DNA of 64,000 bases from an uncultured Gammaproteobacteria bacterium (GCA_964362205.1 CAYIDA010000005.1:1-64000), one strand, 5' to 3'. Numbered from the stretch's first letter, positions 3,584 through 52,887 are shown. The notes: generated from the letters alone by a model not told the origin. Program-made: numbers and translations.

Positions 3584-3703
3584 TTTAGTGGAGGTTTATA
3601 TGAAAGAAAGCTTGACAGATTCATTGGAATAGCATATAGTGTGACATTGAATCAGTTGATTCTGTTTTGTCCTTTTCCAAATAAACCAAACGGAGGTGAT
3701 TCT

Positions 3704-4294
3704 ATGGGAAGTACTTGCGATGTTTGCAAGAAAGTGCGAAAACGCGTTCATCGTAATCTTCTGACTGGTAAATACGTTTGCGCTAATTGTTATTGGATGG
3801 CTCGCTATTATAATCCCGCCTCTCATGAACGTTGTATGAAATGCGGCAAGAAAAAGCCGGTGCAGGCGCGTGATGAGTCTGGTCAGGCCATTTGTCCAAA
3901 TTGTCGGCTCAAGAATCCTGCTATTCACGAGCGATGTTTCAAATGCGGAAAAATGAGATGGGTGGAAATTCGCACAAGTTCTGGTAAAGCTATTTGCGGT
4001 CGTTGTTACAATGTATCTCGTTATCATGATCTATCCACTCACGAACGTTGTATGAAATGCGGCAAGAAGAAGCCGGTGACAAAACGTAGTAAAACCGGCG
4101 AAGCTATTTGCTCAAATTGTTACAAAAAGGCTCGCTATCACGATTCATCCACCTTTGAACGATGCTCAAAATGTGGCGAAACAAAACCGGTGGCAACACG
4201 CAACAAAAATGGCAAGGCTATCTGTCATAAATGCCGTTCACGCGATATTCGGAAGCAATGTTTAAAAATGAAGGAAAGGAAGGTTGCCACGTGA
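3704..4294 (+). CDS. Basic protein made of 5 tandem C4 zinc-ribbon units (CxxCG-x15-17-CxxC, each preceded by HERC)
   Basis: ATG at 3704 is preceded by GGAGGTGA at 3693-3700. The unit 'HERCMKCGKKKPV..R...G.AIC.NC' repeats five times. The protein is K/R-rich. Confidence 0.7.
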   Translation: MGSTCDVCKKVRKRVHRNLLTGKYVCANCYWMARYYNPASHERCMKCGKKKPVQARDESGQAICPNCRLKNPAIHERCFKCGKMRWVEIRTSSGKAICGRCYNVSRYHDLSTHERCMKCGKKKPVTKRSKTGEAICSNCYKKARYHDSSTFERCSKCGETKPVATRNKNGKAICHKCRSRDIRKQCLKMKERKVAT

Positions 4295-4914
4295 AAGGTA
4301 TCTGTGTTGTGTGCGGTCTTGAAAAGACTGTTTACAAAAACAGAAAAACCGGCAAGCAGACTTGTCATAGTTGCAGTGAGAGAGCTCGTTTCCACGCTGT
4401 TTCCAGTCACGAGAAATGTTTCAAGTGTGGTGAGATTAAAGCAGTGCATTCTCGCGATAAGAATAATCGGGCTGTCTGCAACGTTTGCTATTATCGTCAT
4501 TTTGTTAGCCGTGAAAAGTGCCGGCAATGTGGCAGGGTTCAAAAAGTGTATTCACGGAATGAAGCAGGGCAGCCTGTTTGCCGCAATTGTTTTAATCATG
4601 ATTCTTCTAATCACGAGAAGTGTTGCCAGTGCGGTCAGCTTAAAATAGTGCATGGACGGAGCGAATCCAATCAACCCATTTGCAACAGCTGTTATCGCAA
4701 AAATCCATCCACCCACGAAAAGTGCATCAAGTGCGACCAGGTAAAACGGGTATGTGTAAGGCATGAACTTGGCGCCATCTGCGAGAACTGTCGAGGCCAA
4801 GATCCCTCAACACACGAAGAATGCATCAAGTGCGGTCGAGTCAGACGGGTAAACAGCAGAGATAAGTCCGGTCGAGCTATTTGCCCTGCGTGTAATCAAA
4901 AAAGCAAGTGCTAA
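4291..4914 (+). CDS. Second tandem zinc-ribbon array protein (6 HEKC.KCG...C..C units)
   Basis: The frame has the same repeat architecture. A likely GTG start at 4291 lies after GGAAAGGAAGG and overlaps the upstream stop by 4 nt (GTGA). Alternative ATGs at 4231 and 4258 are in frame. Confidence 0.6.
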   Translation: MKGICVVCGLEKTVYKNRKTGKQTCHSCSERARFHAVSSHEKCFKCGEIKAVHSRDKNNRAVCNVCYYRHFVSREKCRQCGRVQKVYSRNEAGQPVCRNCFNHDSSNHEKCCQCGQLKIVHGRSESNQPICNSCYRKNPSTHEKCIKCDQVKRVCVRHELGAICENCRGQDPSTHEECIKCGRVRRVNSRDKSGRAICPACNQKSKC

Positions 4915-5012
4915 TATCAACGGTCCCAGTCATAAAAGGTTGGGACTTTTTCATTTTTTAAAAATCGTATTATGTGGTATAATAAACATTGAAGTAAAAT
5001 TAAAGCATTAAT

Positions 5013-5803: not shown

Positions 5804-6139
5804 ATGTCAGAAGAAACACAGCAATTAAGCTCCAAGGACGTGTCGGACAATAAAGTAATCTCCGCCATCGGTTATATCGGCGTACTGTGCTTGATTCCGC
5901 TTTTGTTAAAAAAAGATAGCAAGTTCGCGCAGTTTCACGCCAAGCAGGGATTGGTTTTGTTTATCGCGGAAATCATGGTTTCTTTTGTGAATATTGTTCC
6001 ATTGCTTGGACAAATTGTTTGGTTTTTCGCCGGTTTAGTTTTTTTGGTGATGTCAGTGATTGGTTTACTGAAAGCCTGGAAAGGCGAGTGGTGGAAAATA
6101 CCGTATCTGCATGAATACGCGGAAAAAATTAATATTTAA
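5804..6139 (+). CDS. Small membrane protein (DUF4870-like, FHAKQG motif)
   Basis: 111 aa with two TM segments and a 'FAQFHAKQGLVLF' motif. Confidence 0.6.
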   Translation: MSEETQQLSSKDVSDNKVISAIGYIGVLCLIPLLLKKDSKFAQFHAKQGLVLFIAEIMVSFVNIVPLLGQIVWFFAGLVFLVMSVIGLLKAWKGEWWKIPYLHEYAEKINI

Positions 6140-6149
6140 GTTGTAAGGA

Positions 6150-6423
6150 TTGACAGCGTTGTATATAGTTTAATCTATAGATTCAATGAATATTCCGACA
6201 AATTGGTTTATCGCAGTTCTCCGAAGGGTTACTTTTTGACGCCCTGCACCAGTCGCTACGCCTGCCTGCGCGGCAGGGCTCCGGTGCAGGGCAAGCCAAA
6301 AGAGTTCACCTTTACCGTGAATTCGACGAAGGAGTGGTTTACGGCCAGACCCCGTGAAATGCAATGTAATCACGATAAACTATTAAATAAGTGGTTTCAT
6401 TATAAAACGTAAACAACGTTGGC
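6150..6423 (+). repeat. ~250-bp TIR-flanked structured element, copy A (candidate ncRNA or MITE). It is paralogous to 24520-24772 on the opposite strand.
   Basis: GC-rich island in AT-rich DNA. The ends AGCGTTGTATATAG (left) and AAACAACGTT (right) form an inverted repeat. The conserved 5' block is aatctatagattcaatgaatattccgacaaattggtttatcgc and the conserved 3' block is ccagaccccgtgaaatgcaatgtaatcac. The internal 9-bp stem is ccctgcacc...ggtgcaggg. Two six-frame ORFs called here are rejected as compositional artefacts. Confidence 0.6.
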
Positions 6424-6434
6424 AAATCTAATAT

Positions 6435-7880
6435 TTGATTATGGAAAATTTAAAACGAACAAAAATTGTTTGCACGCTGGGGCCGACTTCTGACAAGAAA
6501 CCGATTATCAAGCGTTTGATCAAAGCAGGCATGAATGTCAGCCGGCTTAATTTTTCGCACAATGTTCACTCTTATCATTTGAAAGTAATGAAGATGGTGA
6601 GGGCGGCGGCTATGGAATGCGCTGAACCGGTTGCAATTCTTCAAGATTTGCAAGGTCCGCGGATTAGATTGGGCGAATTGTCGGAAACTGGAATTAATCT
6701 GAAAAATAAAAGCCGTGTAATATTGACTACGGCTGATTCGACGGATGGGAAAAAGATTCCAGTGACTTACAAAAAAATGCATGAAGACGTTAAGGCTGGA
6801 GAAAGAATTTTGATTAGCGATGGTTTGATCGAGTTAAAAGTAAAAAGCGTTCAAAAAAAAGATATTATCTGCGTGGTGATAAACGGCGGTAAAATTTTTT
6901 CTCATAAAGGCATTAATTTGCCCGATACCAATGTTCGAATCGAGGCCTTGTCCGAGAAAGATAAAGAAGACCTGTTGTTTGGTGTGAAAAATAAAGTTGA
7001 TTTTGTGGCCTTGTCGTTTGTGAGAACCGCGAAAGATATTTATAATCTTAGAAAATTAATAGAGAAATATGAACGCCAACTAAAAATCAAAGCAACGTCG
7101 CCGATCAGAATTATCGCGAAAATAGAGCGGCGCGAGGCGATTGAAAACATAGACGAGATTTTGGCGTCGGCCGATGGTTTAATGGTGGCGCGCGGGGATC
7201 TTGGAATTGAAATGCCGGCTGAAGAGATTCCTTTGCTCCAAAAAATGTTGATTGACAAATGTTTGCACGCGGCCAAGCCAGTGATCGTGGCCACGCAAAT
7301 GTTGGAGTCCATGATCAATAATCCGCGACCGACCAGAGCCGAGGTTTCAGACGTGGCTAACGCCGTGATTGATCACACTGACGCGATCATGCTTTCCGGC
7401 GAAACGGCCAATGGGAAATTTCCGGTTGAGGCAGTGGAATATATGACGAAAATCGCGATCAATACGGAAAAATCAACTTATGATGATTTTGTTCTGCAGG
7501 AAAAAGTGAATCAAATTACTCCGGCGAATGACGCGGTGGCCGGCGTAGCCAAAGTTTTGACCGAGCAAGCAAATGTTAAATTAATTTTAGTTGCCTCATT
7601 GTCCGGGCATTCCGGCCGCGTGGTGAGCCGTTATCGGCCGGAAAAACCCATCTATGTTGCTTGCGATGAGCATCGGGTCGAACGTCAACTGAATTTGAAC
7701 TGGGGACTCAAACCGTTTGTTTTGCCCGCTTGTCAAACGATAAACAGCTTCATTGATCAGGCAACAAATTATTTGAAAAGGAAAAAAGTTGTTAAAAAAA
7801 ATGATCGAATCACGATTGTGTCCGGCATCACCATGGGGAAGTCGGGGACAACAGATTTTATAGAAATAAAAAAAATATAA
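6435..7880 (+). CDS. pyk: Pyruvate kinase
   Basis: N-terminus KIVCTLGPTSDKK...MNVSRLNFSHN and the MVARGDLGIEMP signature. The 481-aa length is consistent with pyruvate kinase. Confidence 0.95.
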   Translation: MIMENLKRTKIVCTLGPTSDKKPIIKRLIKAGMNVSRLNFSHNVHSYHLKVMKMVRAAAMECAEPVAILQDLQGPRIRLGELSETGINLKNKSRVILTTADSTDGKKIPVTYKKMHEDVKAGERILISDGLIELKVKSVQKKDIICVVINGGKIFSHKGINLPDTNVRIEALSEKDKEDLLFGVKNKVDFVALSFVRTAKDIYNLRKLIEKYERQLKIKATSPIRIIAKIERREAIENIDEILASADGLMVARGDLGIEMPAEEIPLLQKMLIDKCLHAAKPVIVATQMLESMINNPRPTRAEVSDVANAVIDHTDAIMLSGETANGKFPVEAVEYMTKIAINTEKSTYDDFVLQEKVNQITPANDAVAGVAKVLTEQANVKLILVASLSGHSGRVVSRYRPEKPIYVACDEHRVERQLNLNWGLKPFVLPACQTINSFIDQATNYLKRKKVVKKNDRITIVSGITMGKSGTTDFIEIKKI

Positions 7881-22429: not shown

Positions 22430-22463
22430 GTTGCATTTATCTGTAGATTTGGTAAGCTATTAA

Positions 22464-22603
22464 GGGCTACAAATTACAAATCGTACAAATGTTACAAATT
22501 ACGAATTGTACGAATGTAATGTTGTGAATGGATTTGAAGTGGATTGGTAAGATTTGTATTATCTGTAATTTGTAACATTTGTACGATTTGTAATGTGTAA
22601 CGA
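22464..22603. repeat. Inverted-repeat leader (family F2: gctacaaattacaaatcgtacaaat words), copy a
   Basis: Left arm gggctacaaattacaaatcgtacaaatgttacaaattacgaattgtacgaatgtaatg. Right arm ttgtattatctgtaatttgtaacatttgtacgatttgtaatgtgtaacg. Confidence 0.75.
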
Positions 22604-22642
22604 AAAATTTTTCACCTTTGATTCTAATTTATAAAAATTTTT

Positions 22643-23788
22643 ATGTATTTAAGAAAACACCCGGGAGTAACAGAGGGTTATAAAAAAATGATTTTAGGTT
22701 TTGTTATCGTGACGGTACTGCTCGTCGGCGTGATTATTTATTTTTCCGCCAGCCGAGCGGTCATCGGAATCGTGCCAAAAGGGAAAACAGTGGAAACTGA
22801 TTTTGTGGCTGATGTCGCGACCGATGGCGGAGGAAATCAAGCAGAAGTTTTTCAGGGCGTGTTAAAAGAAATGGAACTTGTGGGAGAGCTCGAGGGTGAC
22901 GCGACCGGTTCGCAGATTTTGAATGGCAATACGATCGGCAAAGTGACTTTGTTCAATAAACGACCTGAAGCGCAAACTTTAGTGAAGACCACGCGTCTTC
23001 TAAGCAAGGACAATGTTTTATTACGATTGACGAATCAAGTGGTGATTCCGGCGAATGGCCAGATCGAAGCTGATGTTTACGCTGATAATCCTAATTCTTT
23101 TCAGGAAATGGCGCCCACCTCTTTTATTATCCCAGGACTTTGGGAGGGGATTCAAGATAAGGTTTATGCTCAAAACAAGAGCGCTTTGAAAAGTACAGGC
23201 ACGGCCGTGAAAGTGGTCAAGGACGTTGACATCACCCGCGTTGAAGAAGAACTCACGAACAAATTGTATGATCAAGCGATTGAACAATTTAAGAAACAAG
23301 CGCCGGATCAGAATTTCGTGACGTTTGTTGTTTCTAAAAAAGTTATTGAGAAGCAGGTGGTGCCGGCAGCGGAAACCGTGCAGGACAAAGTTAAAGTTTC
23401 TTTGAAAGTGAGCGTTGCTCTCGTGGCCATCAATCAAAATGAAATTGTTAATAAGGCTGGTGAGCGTCTTAAGGGCGTGGTGCCGACCGGTTATGATCTC
23501 ATGAATCTTGATGTTGATAAATTTGTTTACACTGTGCAAGCGTTTGATGAGCAAAAGAAAACCGCGAACGTTAAAGTTCATGTCATTGGTGAGGCGGTTG
23601 TCAAAGCGGACAATGAAATTTTCAATAAAGACAAAATCGCCGGTTTAAGTCCGAAAGGCGTTGAACTTTATTTATCAAATTTTGAAGAAGTTGAAGCAGT
23701 CAGCGTGGAATTATCGCCATTCTGGGTAAAAAAAGTGCCGGGTTTGCGCGATCATATTGAAATCGTGGTAGTGAGTCCGTCGAAGTAG
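22643..23788 (+). CDS. Membrane-anchored hypothetical protein
   Basis: 381-aa ORF with an N-terminal TM segment. No recognised domain. Confidence 0.75.
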   Translation: MYLRKHPGVTEGYKKMILGFVIVTVLLVGVIIYFSASRAVIGIVPKGKTVETDFVADVATDGGGNQAEVFQGVLKEMELVGELEGDATGSQILNGNTIGKVTLFNKRPEAQTLVKTTRLLSKDNVLLRLTNQVVIPANGQIEADVYADNPNSFQEMAPTSFIIPGLWEGIQDKVYAQNKSALKSTGTAVKVVKDVDITRVEEELTNKLYDQAIEQFKKQAPDQNFVTFVVSKKVIEKQVVPAAETVQDKVKVSLKVSVALVAINQNEIVNKAGERLKGVVPTGYDLMNLDVDKFVYTVQAFDEQKKTANVKVHVIGEAVVKADNEIFNKDKIAGLSPKGVELYLSNFEEVEAVSVELSPFWVKKVPGLRDHIEIVVVSPSK

Positions 23789-23811
23789 TGTTACAATTTA
23801 AACATAATTAT

Positions 23812-24036
23812 ATGAAAAATCTACACTTAACAAGCTACATAGAAAAAGACGAAGATGGTGTGTTTATTGGATCTATACCGGCTATTCCCAGTTGCTATGC
23901 TCAAGGAAAAACTCAAGAAGAAATGCTGAAAAATTTAAATGAGGTTTTACGGCTTTGCCTGCGAAACACCAGTCAAGGAAATTTGAGGAGAACCAAATTT
24001 ATAGGCATACAGAATATAGAAATTTCCTATGCCTAA
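23812..24036 (+). CDS. hicB: HicB-family (UPF0150) antitoxin
   Basis: LTSYIEKDEDGVFIGSIPAIPSCYAQGKTQEEMLKNLNEVLRLCL matches the UPF0150/HicB pattern. The ORF opens at GTG 23788. The first ATG is at 23812. Confidence 0.7.
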   Translation: MKNLHLTSYIEKDEDGVFIGSIPAIPSCYAQGKTQEEMLKNLNEVLRLCLRNTSQGNLRRTKFIGIQNIEISYA

Positions 24037-24253
24037 ATTGGTTCCAATTAAACCAAAAAGGTTAATAAAAATCATACTCGGTTTAGGCTTCAGACAACGT
24101 GATGCCGAAGGCTCGCATATTTTTTTTCGCCATCTCGACGGTCGAACCACGGTTATTCCAATACATGCTAACGAAATCAGCAGAGGTCTTTTGAGAAAAA
24201 TTTTGAACGATGTTCAGTTGTCAATTGAGGAATACGATGTCCTGAGAAAATAA
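24029..24253 (+). CDS. hicA: HicA-family mRNA interferase toxin
   Basis: MPKLVPIKPKRLIKIILGLGFRQRDAEGSHIFFRHLDGRTTVIPIH is the HicA/YcfA fold. It overlaps hicB by 8 nt. Confidence 0.75.
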   Translation: MPKLVPIKPKRLIKIILGLGFRQRDAEGSHIFFRHLDGRTTVIPIHANEISRGLLRKILNDVQLSIEEYDVLRK

Positions 24254-24463
24254 GTTATGGTTTATTGCGATGCGTGTTATTGACGAAGAAATATATTTTT
24301 AGTACAATTAAAGTGTTCAAGAAATTGGGTCAGCTACCAACTGATTAACCGTCCACCTTCGCATAAAGCTCCGGTGGATCGGTTGAACCAATGTTTTGAT
24401 GAATTAAGAGCTCTGGAATCTGATTTTCCGGAGAACTTGGGTGGGACCCCCCGCAATTTGTGG

Positions 24464-24497
24464 GGCCCAAGGCATAGAGCCTTGGGTTTTTGTTTTA
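24464..24497 (+). terminator. Rho-independent terminator on the + strand
   Basis: Stem cccaaggc / gccttggg with loop atag, followed by tttttgtttt. It lies ~210 nt after the hicA stop. Confidence 0.7.
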
Positions 24498-24519
24498 ATA
24501 ACAAGCTGTTAGAAACGAG

Positions 24520-24772
24520 AGCGTTGTATACATTTTTACCCTTTAACACTCTTATTTGATTTACGGTGATTACGTTGCATTTCACGGGGTCTGGGGTGAA
24601 CTCTTGCCACTTTCAGCACCACGAAAGATGATAGAACCACGCAATTGTGAACCCCAGCGCTTTTGCCTACTTTTGGCGTCAAAAGTAGGTCTGCGAAGCA
24701 TCGCGATAAACTAATTTGTTGGGATATTCATTGAATCCATAGATTAAACTGTAAACAACGCTACCAATTCTT
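24520..24772 (-). repeat. ~250-bp TIR-flanked structured element, copy B (paralogue of 6150-6423; minus-strand orientation)
   Basis: The reverse complement aligns with copy A. Both 5' blocks read agtttaatctat(a/g)gattcaatgaatat(t/c)cc(g/a)acaaatt(g/a)gtttatcgc. Both 3' blocks read ccagaccccgtgaaatgcaa(t/c)gtaatcac. They share ttttgacgcc and agagttcacc. The TIRs are AGCGTTGTATACAT and GTAAACAACGCT. Confidence 0.6.
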
Positions 24773-24791
24773 ACAAATAAGTCTTAATTTT

Positions 24792-26591
24792 ATGAACAAC
24801 AATTTAGAAACAATGCGTCATTCACTTAGCCACGTCATGGCGCAGGCAGTGCTTAAATTTTTTCCTGATGTGAAATTAACGATCGGCCCCCCGATTGACA
24901 ATGGCTTTTATTATGATTTTGATTTAGGCGAAAAATCTTTTACGAAAGATGATTTGAAAAGAATTGAAAAAGAGATGAGAAAAATTGTCAGAGAAGATCA
25001 AGCGTTTGAACAGTTTTCGTTGTCAGCAGAAGAAGCGCTCAAAAAACTGGCGGATAATCCGTATAAACAAGAATTGATCGAAGAGCTTGTTAAACAAGGA
25101 GAAACTCAAATTAGTTTTTACAAAAACATCAACAAACAAGGCGAAATTGTTTTTGAAGATATGTGCCGCGGACCGCACCTTGAATCAACGGGCGGGGCTG
25201 GCGCGTTTAAACTGCACAAACTGGCCGGCGCGTATTGGCGCGGAGATGAGAAAAATAAAATGTTGCAAAGAATATACGCCCTGGCGTTTGAAACCGAGGA
25301 AGAGATTGAAAAATATTTGATTCTGCTCGCGGAAGCGGAAAAAAGAGACCACCGCGTCATCGGCAAAGACTTGTTTTTGCTTGATCCGCAAGTTGGCATG
25401 GGTCTCGCCATGTGGAAACCAAAAGGCGGCCAACTTTGGCGCACGATTGAAGATTTTTGGTATAAAGCGCATCTTGATAACGGTTATGAACTGGTTCGTT
25501 CTCCGCATATCGGCAGCCGCGCTTTGTGGGAGACGAGCGGCCACTGGAATTTTTACAATGACAGCATGTATCCGGTGCTTGAAGTCAGTAAATCACTCAA
25601 AGAAATGCAGACCGGCGCAGTGGTTGATCGCCCGAAAGAAGAGTATTTATTAAAACCAATGAACTGCCCGTTCCATGTTCGGCTTTATAAATCAGAGAAA
25701 TGGTCATATCGCGATTTGCCATTGCGCTGGGCGGAATGCGGCACGGTTTATCGTTACGAAAAGTCCGGCGAATTGTCGGGACTAACTCGCGTGCGCGGAT
25801 TTACGCAGGATGACGCGCATATCATTTGTTCAAAAAAACAAGTTGAAGAAGAATTGAAACGCGTGGCCAATTTCGTTAAATATATTTTTGATACGTTCGG
25901 TTTCAAGGATTATAAAATTTATTTATCCCTTAGTGATCCGAACAATATGAGTAAATATGCCGGCGACAAAGAGGGTTGGCAGTTTACAGAAACGGTTTTA
26001 GAAAAGGTGGCCAAGGAATTGGGCATTCCTTATGAAAAAGAAATCGGCGAAGCGGCGTTTTACGGACCGAAACTGGATTATAAAGTGAAAGACGCGCTGG
26101 GGCGCGAGTGGCAATGTTCTACTTTGCAGTTTGATTTTAATTTGCCGGAACGTTTTGATATGACTTTCACCAATGATGAGGGACAAGAAGAACGGCCATA
26201 CATGTTGCATCGAGCTTTGTTTGGTTCGTTTGAAAGATTCATGGGATTGCTGATTGAACATTACAGCGCGGCTTTTCCACTGTGGCTTTCGCCGGTGCAA
26301 GTAAAAGTCTTGTCGGTTTCGGAAAAATTCAATGATTATGCCAGTGAAGTGGTGTCTGCTCTCAAAAAGAAAAGCATCAGGGTTAAGTTGGCTGATGATG
26401 GCGATTCATTACCCAAGAAAGTTCGCAACGGAGAAAAAGAAAAAATTCCTTATCTTTTAGTTGTTGGAGAAAAGGAAGTCGCTGATAGAACGGTCGCGGT
26501 CAGAAAACGCGGTCAAGGCGATCTTGGACCGCAAATATTGGCTGATTTCGTTGAGCTTGTTTCACGAGAAAACGAAGAGCGAGTAATTTAA
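24792..26591 (+). CDS. thrS: Threonyl-tRNA synthetase
   Basis: N-terminal HSLSHVMAQAV (second additional domain), class II core and anticodon-binding domain. 599 aa. Confidence 0.95.
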   Translation: MNNNLETMRHSLSHVMAQAVLKFFPDVKLTIGPPIDNGFYYDFDLGEKSFTKDDLKRIEKEMRKIVREDQAFEQFSLSAEEALKKLADNPYKQELIEELVKQGETQISFYKNINKQGEIVFEDMCRGPHLESTGGAGAFKLHKLAGAYWRGDEKNKMLQRIYALAFETEEEIEKYLILLAEAEKRDHRVIGKDLFLLDPQVGMGLAMWKPKGGQLWRTIEDFWYKAHLDNGYELVRSPHIGSRALWETSGHWNFYNDSMYPVLEVSKSLKEMQTGAVVDRPKEEYLLKPMNCPFHVRLYKSEKWSYRDLPLRWAECGTVYRYEKSGELSGLTRVRGFTQDDAHIICSKKQVEEELKRVANFVKYIFDTFGFKDYKIYLSLSDPNNMSKYAGDKEGWQFTETVLEKVAKELGIPYEKEIGEAAFYGPKLDYKVKDALGREWQCSTLQFDFNLPERFDMTFTNDEGQEERPYMLHRALFGSFERFMGLLIEHYSAAFPLWLSPVQVKVLSVSEKFNDYASEVVSALKKKSIRVKLADDGDSLPKKVRNGEKEKIPYLLVVGEKEVADRTVAVRKRGQGDLGPQILADFVELVSRENEERVI

Positions 26592-30019: not shown

Positions 30020-30166
30020 GGCTACAAATCATGGCTACATATTACAAATCACTACGAATTTACGAATAGAACTAAAACGTATGAAGAGCGAAACGAAAGA
30101 ACAGTCTAAACCGATTTGCCTGCCCGCGCAGGCGGGTAAATTTGTAGTGATTTGTAATTTGTAGCA
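30020..30166. repeat. F2 inverted-repeat leader, copy b. It forms a perfect long hairpin and ends 5 nt before the ATG at 30172.
   Basis: Left arm ggctacaaatcatggctacatattacaaatcactacgaattt. Right arm aaatttgtagtgatttgtaatttgtagcaaac. The centre contains the gcccgcgcaggcggg hairpin. Confidence 0.75.
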
Positions 30167-30171
30167 AACAT

Positions 30172-30747
30172 ATGCAGGAAAAAATAGTTTTCGCGCCATA
30201 TGATCGCATAGTAAAGTTTTTTTTACCGATCATTCCGAAAAAGCTAAAACCGAATCAGCTGACTTTTTTCAGGTTGATATGTTCGCCGTTACTTATCGGA
30301 CTTTTGGAAACAAAAGAATATACGATTGCTTTGATTTTTTTTGCGATTTTGGCGATAACGGACATGCTGGACGGCTCGCTCGCGCGGCTACGCAATCAAG
30401 TCACGGAATGGGGAAAAATTTGGGATCCGATCGCGGATAAATTGTTGATTGGTACAGTGGTCGTGGTTTTGTTACTTAAAATAAACTTGAGTTTAACGAT
30501 TTTTCTTTTGGCTTTTGAATTGGCTTTTGTGCTCGGCGGCGCGTTCCATAAAATCGGGGAAAACGGCAATCACGCCTTGCAGGCCAATATGTGGGGCAAA
30601 ATAAAAATGAATTTACATTGTTTTGGCGCGGGGCTCTTGATTCTGGGGGTTATTATGGATCACAACATGCTGACCTTTGTCGCCGAAATTTTATTTTATC
30701 TCAGCTTGTTGTTCGCGGCCGTAAGTTTAATTAAACGCGGCGTGTAG
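30172..30747 (+). CDS. CDP-alcohol phosphatidyltransferase family protein
   Basis: DMLDGSLARLRNQVTEWGKIWDPIADK (D-x2-DG-x2-AR...G-x3-D-x3-D motif) and TM segments. Confidence 0.8.
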   Translation: MQEKIVFAPYDRIVKFFLPIIPKKLKPNQLTFFRLICSPLLIGLLETKEYTIALIFFAILAITDMLDGSLARLRNQVTEWGKIWDPIADKLLIGTVVVVLLLKINLSLTIFLLAFELAFVLGGAFHKIGENGNHALQANMWGKIKMNLHCFGAGLLILGVIMDHNMLTFVAEILFYLSLLFAAVSLIKRGV

Positions 30748-30890
30748 GTTAGTTGATAATTAACCTAATTATTCTAATTATTTTAATTGACCTAAATAAT
30801 AGCCAAATAACAATAACCAAAAACTATTTTATGTTTGGGATTTCGGAATTCGAAATTATTTAGAATAATTAGAACAATTAGGTCAATTAT
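30748..30890. repeat. AT-rich inverted-repeat leader (family F4: taattagg / cctaatta words), copy b
   Basis: Left arm ttgataattaacctaattattctaattattttaattgacctaaataat. Right arm ttagaataattagaacaattaggtcaattatcg. Sister copy at 251-400. Confidence 0.65.
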
Positions 30891-34657: not shown

Positions 34658-34763
34658 TCGTATTAAACAACCTTGTCTTTCTTAAAGACAGGGTTTTTTG
34701 TTTTAATCGTAGTTATTTAGTGTGAGTTTGCTTCGAGGTTTTCCTGAAGGAAAGTTTGAACAG

Positions 34764-34880
34764 GGAAGGTTGAGGAGGTCAGGAGATCGGCGAAGCCGAC
34801 AAGCCGTTAAGGTTTCTAAAATCCTGTTCATGTCGGAATAGGGTTGGGCATGGGCGGTAAGATGTTTTTGTTTATAAAAC
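34764..34880 (+). repeat. GC-rich structured element family F5, diverged copy 1
   Basis: Begins GGAAGGTTGAGGAGGTC and ends tgtttataaaac. GC-rich in an AT-rich intergenic region. Confidence 0.55.
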
Positions 34881-34894
34881 GTTTAGAGTATAGT

Positions 34895-35074
34895 TCAGCT
34901 GATTTTTTTGTTTAAAAATGGAAGGTTGAGGAGGTCGATAGACCGACGAAACCGACCGCCCGTCAGGGCATCTCAACCCCCTCCACGTCGGAACGGGGAG
35001 GGGGCAGGCTTGCCCAGTACTTGCGCGAAGCAAATAGTGCTGGGGGGTGGGGCGCAGTCCATGTTTATAACACT
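34895..35074 (+). repeat. GC-rich structured element family F5, copy 2 (candidate ncRNA or leader upstream of rfbB)
   Basis: Nearly identical to 52696-52887 over ~170 nt: ggaaggttgagg(a/g)agtcgatagaccgacgaaaccgaccgcccgtcagggca...ggcaggcttgcccagtacttgcgcga(a/t)gcaaatagtgctggggggtgggg. Internal hairpin ttgc-gcgaa-gcaa. A six-frame ORF called here is rejected. Confidence 0.6.
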
Positions 35075-35164: not shown

Positions 35165-36211
35165 ATGAAATTACTCGTAACCGGCGGTGCCGGTTTTATC
35201 GGTTCAAATTTCATTCGGCATATTTTGAATAAATATCCGTACTATTTTGTTATTAATCTTGATAAACTGACTTACGCCGGCAATTTGGACAATTTGAAAC
35301 AGTTTGAGAGTCATCCGAATTACAAATTCGTTAAAGGAGATATTCTGAACTCAGAATTAATTGAGCATGTCGCGGCTGATGTTGATATTATTGTTCACTT
35401 TGCCGCTGAGACGCACGTTGATCGTTCGGTTCTTGATCCGTTTTCTTTTGTGAAAACCAATGTCCTCGGCACGCACGTTCTGCTTGAAGCCGCGAGAAAA
35501 TTAGGCAACAAAAGATTTCATCATATTTCCACTGACGAAGTTTTCGGTTCTTTGCCGCTTGAGGATACGCATCGTTCATTTCACGAAGAAACGCCGTATG
35601 ATCCGAAGAGTCCGTATTCATCATCAAAAGCCGCGTCCGATCATTTGGTTCGGGCGTATTATCACACTTATGGTTTGCCGATTACGATTTCCAATTGTTC
35701 AAATAATTATGGACAGTTTCAATTTCCGGAAAAAGTGATTCCGCTTTTCATTACCAATTTACTGGAAGGGAAAAAAGTGCCGCTTTACGGAGATGGAAAA
35801 AATGTACGTGATTGGATTCACGTGGAGGATCATTGCGAAGCAGTGGACGCGATTATTCACAAAGGAAAAATCGGCCATACTTATGTTGTTGGCGCTGATT
35901 GCGAGAAAACAAATTATGAATTGACCATGACGATTTTGAAACATTTGGGACATGGCGAAGAAATGATTGAATTTGTGAAAGACCGTCCGGGCCATGATCG
36001 CCGCTATGCTATGCGTTCGCACAAAATTCAGGCAGAACTCGGCTGGAAACCGAAATACAATTTTGAAGATGGTATGCGCCAAACCATTGATTGGTATGTG
36101 GCAAACAAAGATTGGTGGCAGAAAGTGAAGTCAGGGGAGTATTTGAAATATTATGACGAGTGGTACGGAAGTCGGCTACAAATTACGAATCGTACAAATG
36201 TTACAAATTGA
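35165..36211 (+). CDS. rfbB: dTDP-glucose 4,6-dehydratase
   Basis: MKLLVTGGAGFIGSNF... SDR-family with YxxxK. 348 aa. The last ~12 codons are encoded by the left arm of an F2 repeat. Confidence 0.95.
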   Translation: MKLLVTGGAGFIGSNFIRHILNKYPYYFVINLDKLTYAGNLDNLKQFESHPNYKFVKGDILNSELIEHVAADVDIIVHFAAETHVDRSVLDPFSFVKTNVLGTHVLLEAARKLGNKRFHHISTDEVFGSLPLEDTHRSFHEETPYDPKSPYSSSKAASDHLVRAYYHTYGLPITISNCSNNYGQFQFPEKVIPLFITNLLEGKKVPLYGDGKNVRDWIHVEDHCEAVDAIIHKGKIGHTYVVGADCEKTNYELTMTILKHLGHGEEMIEFVKDRPGHDRRYAMRSHKIQAELGWKPKYNFEDGMRQTIDWYVANKDWWQKVKSGEYLKYYDEWYGSRLQITNRTNVTN

Positions 36212-38246: not shown

Positions 38247-40019
38247 ATGAAGATTCTAATCATTGGCGCCAAGGGTATGCTTGGTCAGGAATTGGCCAAG
38301 GCGTTTATTGGCAATGAACTTGTTCTGTGGGACAAAGAAGAGTTGGACATTACGGATTTTGAACGAGTAAAAAAGACGATTAAAGAATTACAGCCGGAAC
38401 TCATTATTAATTCCGCAGCCTTTAACGCGGTGGATGATTGCGAACAAAATTTTGATTTGGCGAAAAAAATAAATTACGACGGTCCGGTGAATTTGGCGAA
38501 AGCGGCTAACATGGTTGGCGCTTTTTTTGTTCATTACAGCACTGATTATGTTTTTGATGGAGAAAGAAGAGATGGCTACGTGGAATATGATTTGCCGGCG
38601 CCGATTTCAAAATACGGAGAATCAAAATATTTAGGCGAAGAAGTATTGGAGCATAATGATGCGATCTATTTAATAAGAACATCGCGTTTGTTCGGTAAAC
38701 AGGCGAGCGCAATCGGCGCAAAAAAAAGTTTTGTGGAAGTGATGCTCAAGTTGGCCGATGAAAAAGAGGAGCTCGAAGTTGTGAATGAGGAAGTGAGTAA
38801 TCCGACGTATGTCGTTGATCTGGCTTATCAAACAAAATTAATTGTTGATGGAAATTATTCACCGGGAATTTATCACGCCACGAATGAAGGCGGTTGTACG
38901 TGGTATGAGTTTGCTTTGGAAATTTTCAAATTATCAGGAAAAACTGTTCGAGTTAAACCGGTTGGCGGAGAAAAGTTTCCGCGGCCGGCCAAACGTCCGA
39001 AATTTTCTTCACTGCGCAATACCAAATTACCGAAAATGAGAAGTTGGCAAGAGGCGTTGGGAGAGTTTCTTGGTGAGTTGGGACACGTGAGTTCAGTTCA
39101 ACAAGTTAGGGCTGAGTCATCTTTTGTTAACGCCTCAACGAGCGAACCCAAGAACAATTTGAACAACGTCAACAACTCCAACAATTCGAACAACTCTAAC
39201 ATCTTGAGCAAAGTTACTCTCAACGAAGTTATCTTGAAAGCGAGCAAACAAGCAACAAATAATCAAAAAATCATGAAAGGCATCATTTTGTCGGGAGGGA
39301 AGGGCACACGCTTACATCCATTAACAAAAATTACGAGTAAACAATTATTACCGGTTTTTCACAAACCAATGATCATGTTTCCGCTCGAAACCTTAATGAA
39401 GGCGGGGATTAAAGATATTTTAATAATTGTTTCGCCTGAGTACGCCGGACAATATTTGCATCTGCTCGGTTCTGGTAAAGAAATGGGCATAAAATTGACT
39501 TATGAAATTCAAGATGAACCGCGCGGTTTGCCGGAAGCATTTATTATCGGCGAAAATTTTATTGGTGATGATAATGTGACCATGATTCTCGGCGACAACA
39601 TATTTTTTGACCATGATTTCACGGACGATATTAAATCGTTTACCAGTGGCGGCCGGGTTTTTGCAGTGGAAGTGCCTGATCCGGAGAGATTTGGCGTGGT
39701 GGAATTTGATCAGAATAATCGCGTCTTATCCATTGAAGAAAAACCGCAAAAGCCGAAAAGCAATTACGCGATTCCGGGAATGTATATTTACGATCAACGT
39801 GTTTGTAATATCGCCAAGGGCATAAAACCAACTTGGCGGCCGGAAACTGATATCACTGAAGTTCACAAAGCTTATTTGAATATGAACGAACTCGATGTGC
39901 GCAAAGTTCACGGCCGCTGGCTCGATGCCGGCACGCACGAATCGTTGTTAAAAGCTTCCAACTGGATCGCGGCTATGGAGTATCAGAAGAGAATGGGGTA
40001 TAATGACATTAAAGCATAG
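38247..40019 (+). CDS. rfbD-rfbA: Bifunctional fusion: dTDP-4-dehydrorhamnose reductase (RfbD, N-terminal) + glucose-1-phosphate thymidylyltransferase (RfbA, C-terminal), joined by an Asn/Ser-rich linker
   Basis: N-terminal half MKILIIGAKGMLGQEL...YSTDYVFDG...SKYGESK matches RmlD. The linker is NNLNNVNNSNNSNNSNILS. C-terminal half MKGIILSGGKGTRLHPLT...GDNIF...LDAGTHESLL matches RmlA. It is a single frame with no stop. The ORF opens at GTG 38217; the first ATG is at 38247. Confidence 0.9.
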   Translation: MKILIIGAKGMLGQELAKAFIGNELVLWDKEELDITDFERVKKTIKELQPELIINSAAFNAVDDCEQNFDLAKKINYDGPVNLAKAANMVGAFFVHYSTDYVFDGERRDGYVEYDLPAPISKYGESKYLGEEVLEHNDAIYLIRTSRLFGKQASAIGAKKSFVEVMLKLADEKEELEVVNEEVSNPTYVVDLAYQTKLIVDGNYSPGIYHATNEGGCTWYEFALEIFKLSGKTVRVKPVGGEKFPRPAKRPKFSSLRNTKLPKMRSWQEALGEFLGELGHVSSVQQVRAESSFVNASTSEPKNNLNNVNNSNNSNNSNILSKVTLNEVILKASKQATNNQKIMKGIILSGGKGTRLHPLTKITSKQLLPVFHKPMIMFPLETLMKAGIKDILIIVSPEYAGQYLHLLGSGKEMGIKLTYEIQDEPRGLPEAFIIGENFIGDDNVTMILGDNIFFDHDFTDDIKSFTSGGRVFAVEVPDPERFGVVEFDQNNRVLSIEEKPQKPKSNYAIPGMYIYDQRVCNIAKGIKPTWRPETDITEVHKAYLNMNELDVRKVHGRWLDAGTHESLLKASNWIAAMEYQKRMGYNDIKA

Positions 40020-42578: not shown

Positions 42579-42881
42579 ATGAATCCACAGGAAATAATCA
42601 ACGAGAACATTATTGCTGCTTTGGGTCTGCAATCATTGCCCCTTGAAAAGAAGCAGGAGGTTTTGAACAAATTGGTTGAATTGGTGCAAAAAAGAATTAT
42701 GCTCCGAGTTATGGACGGTTTGTCAAAAGAGGATGGCGAGAAAATGGCTGAACTCGAAAAAAATCCAATGGCCATGCTGGCGTTTATCGCGGAAAAGTTT
42801 CCGAATTTTGAGGAAATCGTGAAAGAAGAAGTTGAAAAAGTAAAAGAAGAAGCGCTGGCTGCGGCTGAACAAGTCAATTAA
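42579..42881 (+). CDS. Small acidic hypothetical protein
   Basis: 100-aa ORF. The stop is immediately followed by an F2 repeat. Confidence 0.55.
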   Translation: MNPQEIINENIIAALGLQSLPLEKKQEVLNKLVELVQKRIMLRVMDGLSKEDGEKMAELEKNPMAMLAFIAEKFPNFEEIVKEEVEKVKEEALAAAEQVN

Positions 42882-42993
42882 TGGCTACAAATTACAAATC
42901 ACTACAAATTTACAAATAGACAAAAGAATGTATGAACAAAAGAACAGTCTAAACAGATTTGTAAATTTGTAGTGATTTGTAATTTGTAGCAAC
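42882..42993. repeat. F2 inverted-repeat leader, copy d (perfect long hairpin), ending 1 nt before the ATG at 42995
   Basis: tggctacaaattacaaatcactacaaattt ... aaatttgtagtgatttgtaatttgtagcaac. Confidence 0.75.
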
Positions 42994-42994
42994 T

Positions 42995-43180
42995 ATGAGC
43001 ACAGACACAAAAAAGCAAGAGTTGATCGCCAAGATGCGGCTGGCTTATGATGAGTTCGTTAAATATGTTGAAGCGCTTGAAAAAGAGGGTGATGTTTTGT
43101 TGCATCAGCATATTCAGAAGATTGAAAAAGAAAAGATTGATCAAGTGTTAAAAAATATTCAAAATATCGGCTCAAAATAA
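42995..43180 (+). CDS. Small coiled-coil hypothetical protein
   Basis: 61-aa ORF. It has the same start-codon context (F2 right arm 'tttgtagcaa' then ATG) as two recognisable genes (CDP-alcohol phosphatidyltransferase at 30172 and pyrG at 50965). That raises its plausibility. Confidence 0.5.
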   Translation: MSTDTKKQELIAKMRLAYDEFVKYVEALEKEGDVLLHQHIQKIEKEKIDQVLKNIQNIGSK

Positions 43181-50463: not shown

Positions 50464-50910
50464 ATGAAAATTCTCTTGATTAAACACTTAGAATCATTAG
50501 GCCGCAGAGGAGAAATAAAAAATGTCGCAGAAGGTTACGCGAGAAATTTTTTATTGCCGGGGAAATTTGCGGTGGTGGCCAATGAAGCGAATGTAAAGAA
50601 ATATGCTAATATCGAAAATCAGGTTGAATCGAAACAGGTTAATAAAAAATTAAAAACTCCGGAGGAAATCGCGGCGCGGCTTCGCACGATATCAATCGTG
50701 TTGGCGGAAAAAGCGGATGACAGTGGAACGTTATTCGCCGGCCTTACCAAAGAAAAACTGGTTCAATTGCTCGCGGCCAAAGGCATTGATTTAAAAACAA
50801 AACAAATTGATTTGGCGGAACCAATAAAGAAGATCGGTGATTATAGAATCGGAGTGAATATCAGCGCCAGTTTCAAAAGTGAATTTCGGGTTTCAATAAA
50901 AAAAAATTAA
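50464..50910 (+). CDS. rplI: 50S ribosomal protein L9
   Basis: MKILLIKHLESLGRRGEIKNVAEGYARNFLLP matches the L9 N-domain. 148 aa. Confidence 0.9.
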   Translation: MKILLIKHLESLGRRGEIKNVAEGYARNFLLPGKFAVVANEANVKKYANIENQVESKQVNKKLKTPEEIAARLRTISIVLAEKADDSGTLFAGLTKEKLVQLLAAKGIDLKTKQIDLAEPIKKIGDYRIGVNISASFKSEFRVSIKKN

Positions 50911-50964
50911 AATTTGTATAATTCGTAATTTGTAACATTTGTACGATTTGTAATTTGTAGCAAT
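50911..50964. repeat. F2 half-element (right-arm type only) filling the rplI-pyrG spacer, ending 0 nt before the pyrG ATG
   Basis: aatttgtataattcgtaatttgtaacatttgtacgatttgtaatttgtagcaat then ATG. Confidence 0.7.
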
Positions 50965-52611
50965 ATGTGCAAGTTTATTTTCGTGGTCGGCGGAGTGATG
51001 AGCGGTGTTGGCAAAGGAGTGGCCGCTGCTTCCATCGGCCGGATTTTGCAGAGCAAAGGCTATCGCGTTTCCGCGATTAAGATTGACCCATATATCAATA
51101 TTGACGCCGGCACCATGAATCCCACGGAGCACGGCGAAGTTTTTGTCACAGAGGATGGAGATGAGACTGATCAAGATATTGGCAACTATGAACGCTTTCT
51201 AAATCAGAATATATATTCCGATAACTACATGACCACCGGCCGAGTTTACCAAACAGTAATCGAGCGCGAAAGAAATCTCGGCTATCATGGAAAATGCGTG
51301 GAGGTGGTGCCGCATATTCCCGAGGAAATTATTCGTCGCATAAATAACGCGGCCAAGAAGAGCGACGCTGAAATAATGATGGTGGAAATCGGCGGCACGG
51401 TCGGTGAATATCAAAACCTGTTATTTTTGGAGGCAGCGCGCATGATGAAGATGCAGAATTTTCATGATGTGCTTTTTATTTTGGTTTCTTTTTTGCCGGT
51501 GCCGGGAAAATTGGGAGAAATGAAAACCAAACCAACGCAATATGCGATTCGCACTTTGAATTCCGCCGGCATTCAAGCTGACTTTGTCCTGTGCCGCGCC
51601 GAGCAAGCGATTGACAAAGAACGTAAACAAAAAATTGCCGTGAATGGCGGTTTGTTTCCGGATCATATTATATCCGCGCCGGACGTTGATTCTATTTATG
51701 ATATTCCGGTTAATTTTGAAGCAGAACATTTGGGTGAAAAGATTTTGAAACAATTCGGTTGGAGCCCGCGTCAGATCGGCGGACTTGAGGAATGGAAAGA
51801 GTTCGTGATGAAAAGCAAATCAGCGCAGAAAATAGTTAAAATCGGTATCTGCGGAAAATATTTTAAAACCGGTGATTTTGTTTTAAAGGATTCATACATT
51901 TCTGTGATTGAGGCGATCAAACACGCGGCCGGCGTAAATGATGTTAAGACGGAAATACAATGGCTGAACGCAGAAGTTTACGAAGAAGACGCTTCAAAAC
52001 TGAGAGAGTTGTCACAGTTTGACGGAGTGATTGTGCCGGGCGGTTTTGGCGGACGGGGGGTGGAAGGAAAAATTAATGCTATTCGTTATTTGCGAGAGAA
52101 TAAAATTCCATTTTTCGGGCTTTGCTACGGATTGCAATTAGCGACGATTGAATTTGCCAGGAATGTTTGCGGATTAACGGACGCGACTTCTGAAGAAATC
52201 AATTCGAGCGCCAGTCATCAAGTGATTCATATCATGCCTGACCAAATTCAAAATATTGATCAGAAGAAATACGGCGCGACCATGCGTCTCGGCGCCTACC
52301 CCTGTGTTCTCGACGAGCGTTCGATTTGTTATCAGGCATATGGCGAAAAACAAATATCCGAGCGCCACCGCCACCGCTATGAAGTTAACAATTATTATCG
52401 CGATTTAATGGAACAAAAAGGATTGATGTTTGCCGGCTTGTCGCCTGATCGGCGTTTGGTGGAAGCGATTGAATTGCCCGGACATCCGTTTTTCGTGGCC
52501 ACGCAATTTCATCCTGAATTTAAATCAAGACCAATTGTCGGGCACCCGCTATTTAATGCGTTTATTAAAGTTTGCCTTAATAAATATGAACGAGAATTTA
52601 ATAGTAGATAA
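50965..52611 (+). CDS. pyrG: CTP synthase
   Basis: MCKFIFVVGGVMSGVGKGV... synthetase domain plus a GATase-1 domain (GLCYGLQ). 548 aa. Confidence 0.95.
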   Translation: MCKFIFVVGGVMSGVGKGVAAASIGRILQSKGYRVSAIKIDPYINIDAGTMNPTEHGEVFVTEDGDETDQDIGNYERFLNQNIYSDNYMTTGRVYQTVIERERNLGYHGKCVEVVPHIPEEIIRRINNAAKKSDAEIMMVEIGGTVGEYQNLLFLEAARMMKMQNFHDVLFILVSFLPVPGKLGEMKTKPTQYAIRTLNSAGIQADFVLCRAEQAIDKERKQKIAVNGGLFPDHIISAPDVDSIYDIPVNFEAEHLGEKILKQFGWSPRQIGGLEEWKEFVMKSKSAQKIVKIGICGKYFKTGDFVLKDSYISVIEAIKHAAGVNDVKTEIQWLNAEVYEEDASKLRELSQFDGVIVPGGFGGRGVEGKINAIRYLRENKIPFFGLCYGLQLATIEFARNVCGLTDATSEEINSSASHQVIHIMPDQIQNIDQKKYGATMRLGAYPCVLDERSICYQAYGEKQISERHRHRYEVNNYYRDLMEQKGLMFAGLSPDRRLVEAIELPGHPFFVATQFHPEFKSRPIVGHPLFNAFIKVCLNKYEREFNSR

Positions 52612-52695: not shown

Positions 52696-52887
52696 TTTTT
52701 TTGTTTTAAAATAGAAGGTTGAGGGAGTCGATAGACCGACGAAACCGACCGCCCGTCAGGGCACCTCAAACCCCCTCCACGTCGCCCTTCGAGTACCTCA
52801 GGGTGACAGGAGGAGGGGGCAGGCTTGCCCAGTACTTGCGCGATGCAAATAGTGCTGGGGGGTGGGGTGCGGTCTTGGTTATAAAAG
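52696..52887 (+). repeat. GC-rich structured element family F5, copy 3
   Basis: Close paralogue of 34895-35074, including the shared upstream gatttttttgtttaaaa(t/a)(g/t)(g/a) context. A six-frame ORF called here is rejected. Confidence 0.6.

Follow-up and report, generated by a model that had tools for sequence, protein, structure and literature searches.

A dispersed repeat with terminal inverted repeats and a hairpin-rich interior, very probably a MITE family, in a Patescibacteria lineage near Falkowbacteria

The window, by which we mean the whole 64-kb stretch of DNA that was analysed, carries two related stretches, one ahead of pyk and the other ahead of thrS. The DNA originates from groundwater of the Hainich well H51. 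The ThrRS and Pyk proteins encoded in the window are closest to Patescibacteria and Falkowbacteria-labelled proteins. Copy A (6142-6433, plus strand, 292 bp), which belongs to a subfamily with a long inserted GC hairpin, splits an abutting pair formed by a DUF4870 gene and pyk. Its 3' end is found 7 nt from the ATG of pyk at 6441, so that it sits directly before this gene, as had been pointed out from the sequence. Copy B (24507-24775, minus strand, 269 bp) is antisense and lies between the terminator (24462-24490) of a T-box-like leader and the ATG of thrS. The leader itself spans 24194-24495 on the plus strand and contains a promoter-like TTGACG-17-TACAAT (24280-24308) and the T-box sequence AACUUGGGUGGGACC; it reaches 32.5 bits versus an Rfam gathering score of 93, and was also observed upstream of thrS at two loci outside the window, L031 and L034. 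Between a 381-aa gene and this leader, a HicB-like (UPF0150) and HicA toxin gene pair was detected at 23788-24253 on the plus strand.

The original prediction had described two look-alike, GC-rich elements of ~250 bp with inverted termini and conserved end blocks. The two stretches are real and related, showing 77% column identity in the alignment of A versus B, and a family nhmmer profile revealed no third copy in the 64-kb window. The 5' block of 43 nt was recovered as an exact match at 6172-6214 (plus strand) and 24703-24745 (minus strand), with a chance expectation of 0, and the 29-nt 3' block at 6345-6373 (plus strand) and 24566-24594 (minus strand), where none was expected by chance. Both internal anchors are present in the two copies; AGAGTTCACC is confined to them, whereas TTTTGACGCC also appears at two unrelated sites of the window. 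The central regions of A and B could not be aligned with each other, in agreement with their description as unrelated. Inverted arms of the form AGCGTTGTWTA were located at 6155-6165 and 6410-6420 in copy A, the 3' arm of which (AACGTTGTTTA) carries 1 mismatch, and at 24752-24762 and 24520-24530 in copy B. While the inverted termini proved correct, the length had to be revised, as the true ends lie ~14 nt beyond the AGCGTTGT arms on each side. Similarly, a high GC content is confined to the core of copy A (6225-6350, 58.7% GC) and does not extend to whole elements, with values of 43.5% in copy A and 40.9% in copy B versus 41.8% in the window.

The element terminates in imperfect TIRs (terminal inverted repeats) of ~30 bp, with the arrangement 5'-TGTAAGAATTGGTAGCGTTGT...ACAACGCT...TCTTACA-3'. 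Conservation across all aligned copies begins at TGTAAG and stops at YTWAYA, the consensus ends being TGTAAG...CTTACA, and in every full copy the first 30 nt match the last 30 nt once the latter are reverse-complemented, as exemplified by TGTAAGAATTGGTAGCGTTGTATACAGTTT versus TGTAAGATTGAACAGCGTTGTTTATACTTT. In copy A, the 5' TIR (TGTAAGGATTGACAGCGTTGTATATAGTTT) occupies 6142-6171 and the 3' TIR (AAAACGTAAACAACGTTGGCAAATCTAATA) 6404-6433, both on the plus strand. In copy B, the corresponding TIRs are located at 24746-24775 (TGTAAGAATTGGTAGCGTTGTTTACAGTTT) and 24507-24536 (AAAATGTATACAACGCTCTCGTTTCTAACA), both given on the minus strand. Past 30 nt the likeness of the two ends was no greater than that of shuffled sequence, and extended TIRs were rejected because of this dissimilarity. 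Repeated subterminal sites were also considered and rejected, since the terminal motif has no internal repeats.

A 7-bp direct repeat flanks the element. Within the 14 full copies compared, 68 of 98 positions matched in this register, versus 16-37 in shifted registers, and permutation of the partner flanks (20,000 trials) gave a mean of 43 and a maximum of 64.4. This high permutation baseline is due to a shared target preference: the left 7-mers have T at position 3 in 13 out of 14 cases and A at position 5 in all 14, and the target consensus is nnTnAnn, AT-rich with a T-N-A centre. Both repeats agree completely (7/7) in L009 (AATCAAA) and L020 (TCTAATT), at 6/7 positions in L008, L021, L022 and L027, and at 5/7 positions in both window copies, L013b and L015; no recognisable repeat was observed in L024 (0/7) or L025 (2/7). 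These last two copies, and the match of only 5/7 in the window, count against an interpretation as a MITE.

In the window, copy A is flanked on the left by TTTAAGT (6135-6141, plus strand), which includes the TAA stop (6137-6139) of the upstream DUF4870 gene, and on the right by TTTGATT (6434-6440, plus strand), immediately followed by the ATG of pyk. The repeats of copy B are AACAAGC at the low-coordinate side (24500-24506, plus strand; GCTTGTT in element orientation) and AATAAGT at the high-coordinate side (24776-24782, plus strand), the latter 9 nt before the thrS ATG at 24792. The same geometry is shared by copy A and L008, in which the stop codon forms positions 3-5 of the left repeat and is followed by 2 nt, the element, the 7-nt right repeat and an ATG. 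The T-N-A target often contains one of the stops TAA and TGA, and the duplication thereby leaves the upstream gene with its stop and the downstream gene with its start context.

Further copies were found beyond the window. In total, the family comprises 15 full and 2 partial copies, two of them in the window and the others from two related Patescibacteria populations, namely the MAG JBBTXH01 (H51-bin326_1), with 5 full copies and the partial copy L005, and the metagenome Ga0209211, with 8 full copies and the partial copy L037. A scan for exact matches to the 3' block in one genome per species yielded five matches in JBBTXH01 (the partial L005, L008, L009, L010 and L013), and the exact-match scan of metagenomes yielded seven copies on seven Ga0209211 contigs; L013b, L031 and the partial L037, located at a contig end, were added by a TIR scan and nhmmer. 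Exact-match hits within genes, including a class 3 FBPase-like coding region, were discarded as chance (loci L001-4, L006-7, L011-12, L014, L016-19, L023, L026 and L028). Thus, JBBTXH01 has at least 6 copies and Ga0209211 at least 9, compared to the 2 of these 64 kb, and no two copies share the same context. Copy A shares 84-86% identity with L009 and L013a, and copy B 87% with L008, in each case from another genome. In phage and plasmid collections nothing similar to the element was detected.

Three of the copies (L005, L025 and L037) sit at contig ends, which suggests that the repeat breaks assemblies. At another locus (L013:3415-5209), two copies of different subfamilies and in the same orientation flank a dinB-like (IMS family) polymerase gene, from the ends of which they are separated by no more than 10 and 19 nt. 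The outer TIRs of this pair could in principle mobilise the whole 1.8-kb unit.

All 15 full copies are intergenic and occupy short spacers, where the nearest ORF is often only 2-20 nt away; about 9 of them are co-directional with the neighbouring genes and about 6 are antisense. The neighbours are unrelated to each other and include pyk, thrS, dinB, and genes for an amino-acid kinase, a glycosyltransferase and a TrmB regulator. Regarding coding capacity, no frame is open or conserved across the copies, and a 69-codon frame of copy A (6203-6412) was rejected as a small ORF, being interrupted in most other copies. Searches of Rfam (15) gave no match to the element, neither in the whole window at gathering thresholds, nor for the two copies under permissive filters and E <= 10, nor at six loci with other subfamilies. 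The sole promoter-like site of copy A, TTGTAA-17-TATAGT at 6141-6169, falls in the 5' TIR; shuffled sequences yield as many such sites, and the -35 match relies on a flanking base. Within either copy, no terminator was found. As neither copy places a terminator-like site in the path of the host transcript, pyk and thrS are probably expressed by read-through past copies A and B.

Several other repeats are present in the window. A second, unrelated family consists of intergenic palindromes of TACAAAT-like heptamers (22457-22599, 30022-30177, 36166-36211, 42875-43001 and 50908-50984) in which a distance of 36-72 nt separates two arms of 35-50 nt with 83-100% complementarity; these may represent another MITE or a REP-like element, and a related sequence was observed in L031, upstream of the 381-aa gene. 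A GC-rich repeat of ~170 nt, whose copies are 92-95% identical, occurs at 34903-35059 and 52696-52874, both opening with a T-run followed by GGAAGGTTGAGGAGGTCG, and partially at 34747-34825; it had no Rfam match in the window-wide search at gathering thresholds. AT-rich repeats (AATTATTCTAATTATTTTAATTG...) were found at 247-391 and 30758-30889, both intergenic and 81-88% identical. Finally, a 140-nt unit is present in three tandem-like copies over 3765-4234, with 61-71% identity to the reference copy, in a stretch of overlapping ORFs on both strands (3596-4027 on the minus strand, 3641-4294 and 4231-4914 on the plus strand).

The Ga0209211 population, whose ThrRS and Pyk are 89% and 87% identical to those of the window, allowed us to compare occupied and empty sites. 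In the window, the sequence around the pyk insertion is ttaataTTTAAGT-(copy A)-TTTGATTatg. The equivalent sites of L037 (ttaataTTTGATTatg; Pyk 87% identical) and L038 (ttaataTTTAATTatg; Pyk 82% identical) are both empty and contain a single 7-mer, TTTGATT in L037 and TTTAATT in L038; the DUF4870 gene and pyk overlap in the former and are 2 nt apart in the latter. Around the thrS insertion, the sequence of the window is ...gggtttttgttttaatAACAAGC-(copy B)-AATAAGTcttaattttATG, with ..aatAACAAGC before the element, versus ...gggtttttattttatAATAATTtaaaattttATG (that is, ..tatAATAATTtaaaattttATG) in L031, where the site is empty and the one 7-mer is AATAATT. Thus, at both loci a single 7-mer of the relative occupies the exact position of the pair that encloses the element in the window. 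There are also copies at sites of its own in the relative, one upstream of the 381-aa gene (L031:473-747) and one upstream of a 78-aa gene (L037:1-98). The orthologous window spacer of the latter (about 4915-5012) is without a copy. For the former, which was compared with 22430-22642 of the window, the upstream neighbour differs and, therefore, no clean empty site can be drawn. The Hic gene pair of the window is missing from the syntenic locus of the relative (L031-L033), which constitutes a second insertion/deletion difference there.

Taken together, the TIRs, the duplication and the empty sites demonstrate that the element has transposed. The preference of the original prediction for a mobile element was well founded, given the TIRs, the 7-bp duplications, the dispersal over three genomes or populations and the exact empty sites in a close relative. 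We are highly confident that A and B are copies of one non-coding MITE family of a Patescibacteria lineage near Falkowbacteria, from groundwater.

As for the mechanism, we infer mobilisation in trans: a DDE-type transposase encoded elsewhere would bind the TIRs, cut the AT-rich nnTnAnn target with a 7-bp stagger and insert the element, and repair of the gaps would then give rise to the 7-bp target-site duplication. Differences between the TIRs are non-compensatory, as had been remarked for the two window copies: none of 18 TIR pairs was altered on both sides, which fits recognition of the sequence by a protein and not a selected helix. An autonomous partner with the same TIRs was not found in the window, in the 41 fetched loci or in IMG/VR. 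Scanning of the window and the loci with the TIRs returned element ends only, save for a site with 5 mismatches at 39172-39192 that was taken as chance, and two scans of IMG/VR returned one chance match inside a gene (L036) and nothing else. A Pfam scan of 20 window ORFs recognised no transposase. The TG...CA ends and the 7-bp duplication fit an IS481- or IS21-type rve transposase and provide a lead; since no partner element was found, the assignment to an IS family is to be read only as such.

The interior of the element comprises, in this order, the conserved 5' block, the P2 hairpin, a variable module that stem P3 closes, the conserved 3' block and the AT-rich hairpin P5. P2 consists of a YTAC-U4-5 stem with a GACGCC loop, and P3 of CUGGGGY...RCCCCAG. 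In copy A, P2 (GAAGGGT.ACTTTTT / AAAGAGT..ACCTTT) extends over 6223-6315 on the plus strand, and its GACGCC loop has received an inserted GC-rich hairpin, the arms of which are at 6241-6250 and 6283-6292. In copy B, P2 (CCTACTTTT-GACGCC-AAAAGTAGG) is located at 24666-24689 and the variable module, closed by the P3 stem CTGGGGT...ACCCCAG, at 24591-24657, both on the minus strand. At least five module variants exist, which are common to different genomes at non-orthologous sites; besides the copy A subfamily with its long GC hairpin within the P2 loop, L008 corresponds to copy B plus one extra perfect hairpin. The 3' block contains a 15-mer, ACCCCGTGAAATGCA, which is invariant across all aligned full copies. 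Among three copies found independently it is kept in two and substituted in L037. Because most copies were found by an exact match to this block, its conservation is partly an ascertainment artefact.

Since the central modules are not homologous, RNAalifold returned only trivial helices when run on all 15 copies. On the 11 alignable copies, 88.7% of the cells were paired, versus 38-47% when partners were slid. Changes on both sides were observed at four pairs, all in P2 and P3, in these 11 related copies, with slid controls showing 1-4. The covariation score among the related copies was 0.091, compared to 0.072 in shuffled alignments (0 of 500 shuffles reached the observed value) and 0.02-0.07 in slid ones. 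The inner 7 bp of P2 in L010 (CCCTGAACC/GGTTCAGGG) contain a compensatory change from C-G to A-T with respect to copy A. For helices P1 (in the 5' block) and P4 (GUGAAAUGCA..UCAC), only mismatches or one-sided changes were seen; P4 overlaps P5 and was therefore left out of the tested structure. The compensatory support for P2 and P3 is thus real but thin, amounting to ~5-6 events among related copies. No consistent bias of fold energy between forward and reverse strand was found, and A·C mismatches, which the opposite strand would show as G·U, exceed G·U pairs in the robust hairpins, so that neither strand stands out as that of an RNA.

The blocks and hairpins of the interior seem more conserved than would be expected of a neutral MITE, which hints at an added function beyond that of a plain MITE. 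The core might act as RNA, either by insulating, stabilising or processing the transcripts of split operons or in the form of a small RNA whose promoter is carried by the element, or as DNA, by providing subterminal protein-binding sites or a cofactor or binding platform for the transposition of the element itself. Such a functional modular core would supplement the MITE interpretation, and we regard it as possible, though rather doubtful. It is favoured by the pairing of P2 that is kept through changes on both sides (GGCTAC/GTAGCC, GGTTAC/GTAACC, ACCTAC/GTAGGC), by that of P3 (CTGGGG/CCCCAG versus CCGGGG/CCCCGG), by the covariation above that of every shuffle, and by the retention of the closing stems when modules are swapped or hairpins are added. 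The predicted fold of each window copy is also more favourable than those of its shuffled versions (z = -3.5 and -2.2). However, there are only a few compensatory events, in copies of close kinship, a covariation score above that of shuffles can arise without structure, slid controls produced both-side pairs as well, and P1 and P4 lack convincing covariation. The two strands fold about equally, and the promoter-like site in the 5' TIR of copy A, which could be adduced in favour of a transcript, occurs at the frequency of chance, needs a flanking base and is not accompanied by a terminator.

The folding could alternatively mean that the copies are stand-alone genes of structured small RNAs, whose termini form a long-range closing RNA helix and are not the ends of mobile DNA. 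The terminal helix does close the predicted fold of every copy, and sequence blocks are conserved over three genomes, but the 7-bp direct repeats fall outside this helix, its 18 pairs are devoid of compensatory change, and a close relative has exact empty sites. Furthermore, transcription from the 5' promoter-like site, if this was used, would begin within or beyond the 5' arm and, therefore, the helix could not form. With no Rfam family, no terminator, a promoter at chance level and mixed orientation, the small-RNA alternative of the original prediction is very improbable. The interior rich in hairpins also recalls REP/BIME-like or IS200/IS605-derived palindromes, which a Y1 (HUH) transposase would mobilise in single-stranded form, and the CTAC...GTAG stem of P2 resembles the GTAG head of REP sequences. 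However, IS200/IS605 and REP/RAYT elements are not known to possess TIRs or a fixed-length duplication, both of which are present here, and such an origin is most unlikely. The position of copy A immediately upstream of pyk, and the finding that several copies end 7-20 nt ahead of a start codon, might suggest a cis-regulatory leader, that is, a riboswitch or attenuator of pyk and of other downstream genes. Against it, some 6 of the 15 copies, copy B in the thrS leader among them, run antisense to the adjacent gene, the adjoining genes are functionally unrelated, and the orthologous pyk and thrS genes of relatives lack the element, with the upstream gene overlapping pyk in L037. The mixed orientation and the unrelated neighbours exclude a leader or riboswitch for all practical purposes. 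A MITE is the interpretation that we retain.

Patescibacteria (CPR) have tiny, gene-dense genomes that are usually thought to be poor in mobile elements. Several presence/absence differences between close relatives within ~10 kb of shared gene order indicate that transposition still shapes these genomes. The insertions cut an abutting gene pair (the DUF4870 gene and pyk) and a regulatory leader (that of the T-box and thrS). The element would explain a class of MAG contig breaks, is usable as a strain-level marker, and is a trap for false positives in screens for structured RNAs. If the hairpin core was functional, it would show a way for a mobile element to render its insertions harmless; a structured-RNA core would explain why insertions are tolerated at stop/start junctions and inside a T-box leader, and, if selected, would make this the first structured-RNA-bearing mobile element described in reduced Patescibacteria genomes. 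A search of the accessible literature brought up no paper dealing with MITEs or insertion-sequence repeats of Patescibacteria/CPR. MITEs are well known; the present family, with its unusually hairpin-rich core, appears to be undescribed.

Among known insertion sequences with TG...CA ends and an rve-type DDE transposase, duplications of 4-15 bp are listed in ISfinder for IS481, the ends of which are TGT, of 4-8 bp for IS21 and of 3-5 bp for IS3. The 5'-TGT...ACA-3' termini of our element resemble those of the IS481/IS21 type, and its 7-bp duplication is within the ranges of both and outside that of IS3. The TIR core TAGCGTTGTATACA resembles TAGGTTGTATGCA in the IS481 primer GATTCAATAGGTTGTATGCATGG, which we take to be located at the IS481 end; the similarity is short and serves as a lead, not as a test. 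This primer sequence is widely used and present in the literature. Unlike IS481, IS21 and IS3, the present element has no associated transposase gene.

With structured RNAs of Rfam, the family shares predicted folds that beat shuffles and some compensatory change in local hairpins, with no family match. The BOX elements of Streptococcus pneumoniae are modular (boxA-boxB(n)-boxC) and have no clear signature of TIRs plus duplication. As in BOX, conserved end modules surround a variable middle, the predicted structure is strong and the location is intergenic; unlike BOX, the present family has TIRs and a duplication, and the sequences are not comparable. Bacterial MITEs such as Correia/NEMIS of Neisseria and RUP of Streptococcus pneumoniae measure about 100-160 bp, duplicate TA, are often co-transcribed with neighbouring genes, and have an interior that is essentially two fused IS ends. 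Like these, our element is short and non-coding, has TIRs and a fixed-length duplication, is dispersed in intergenic regions and is polymorphic between relatives. It differs from them in having no detectable sequence similarity to either, a length of 269-292 bp, a 7-bp duplication at nnTnAnn, a host among the Patescibacteria, and an interior that is modular and rich in hairpins.
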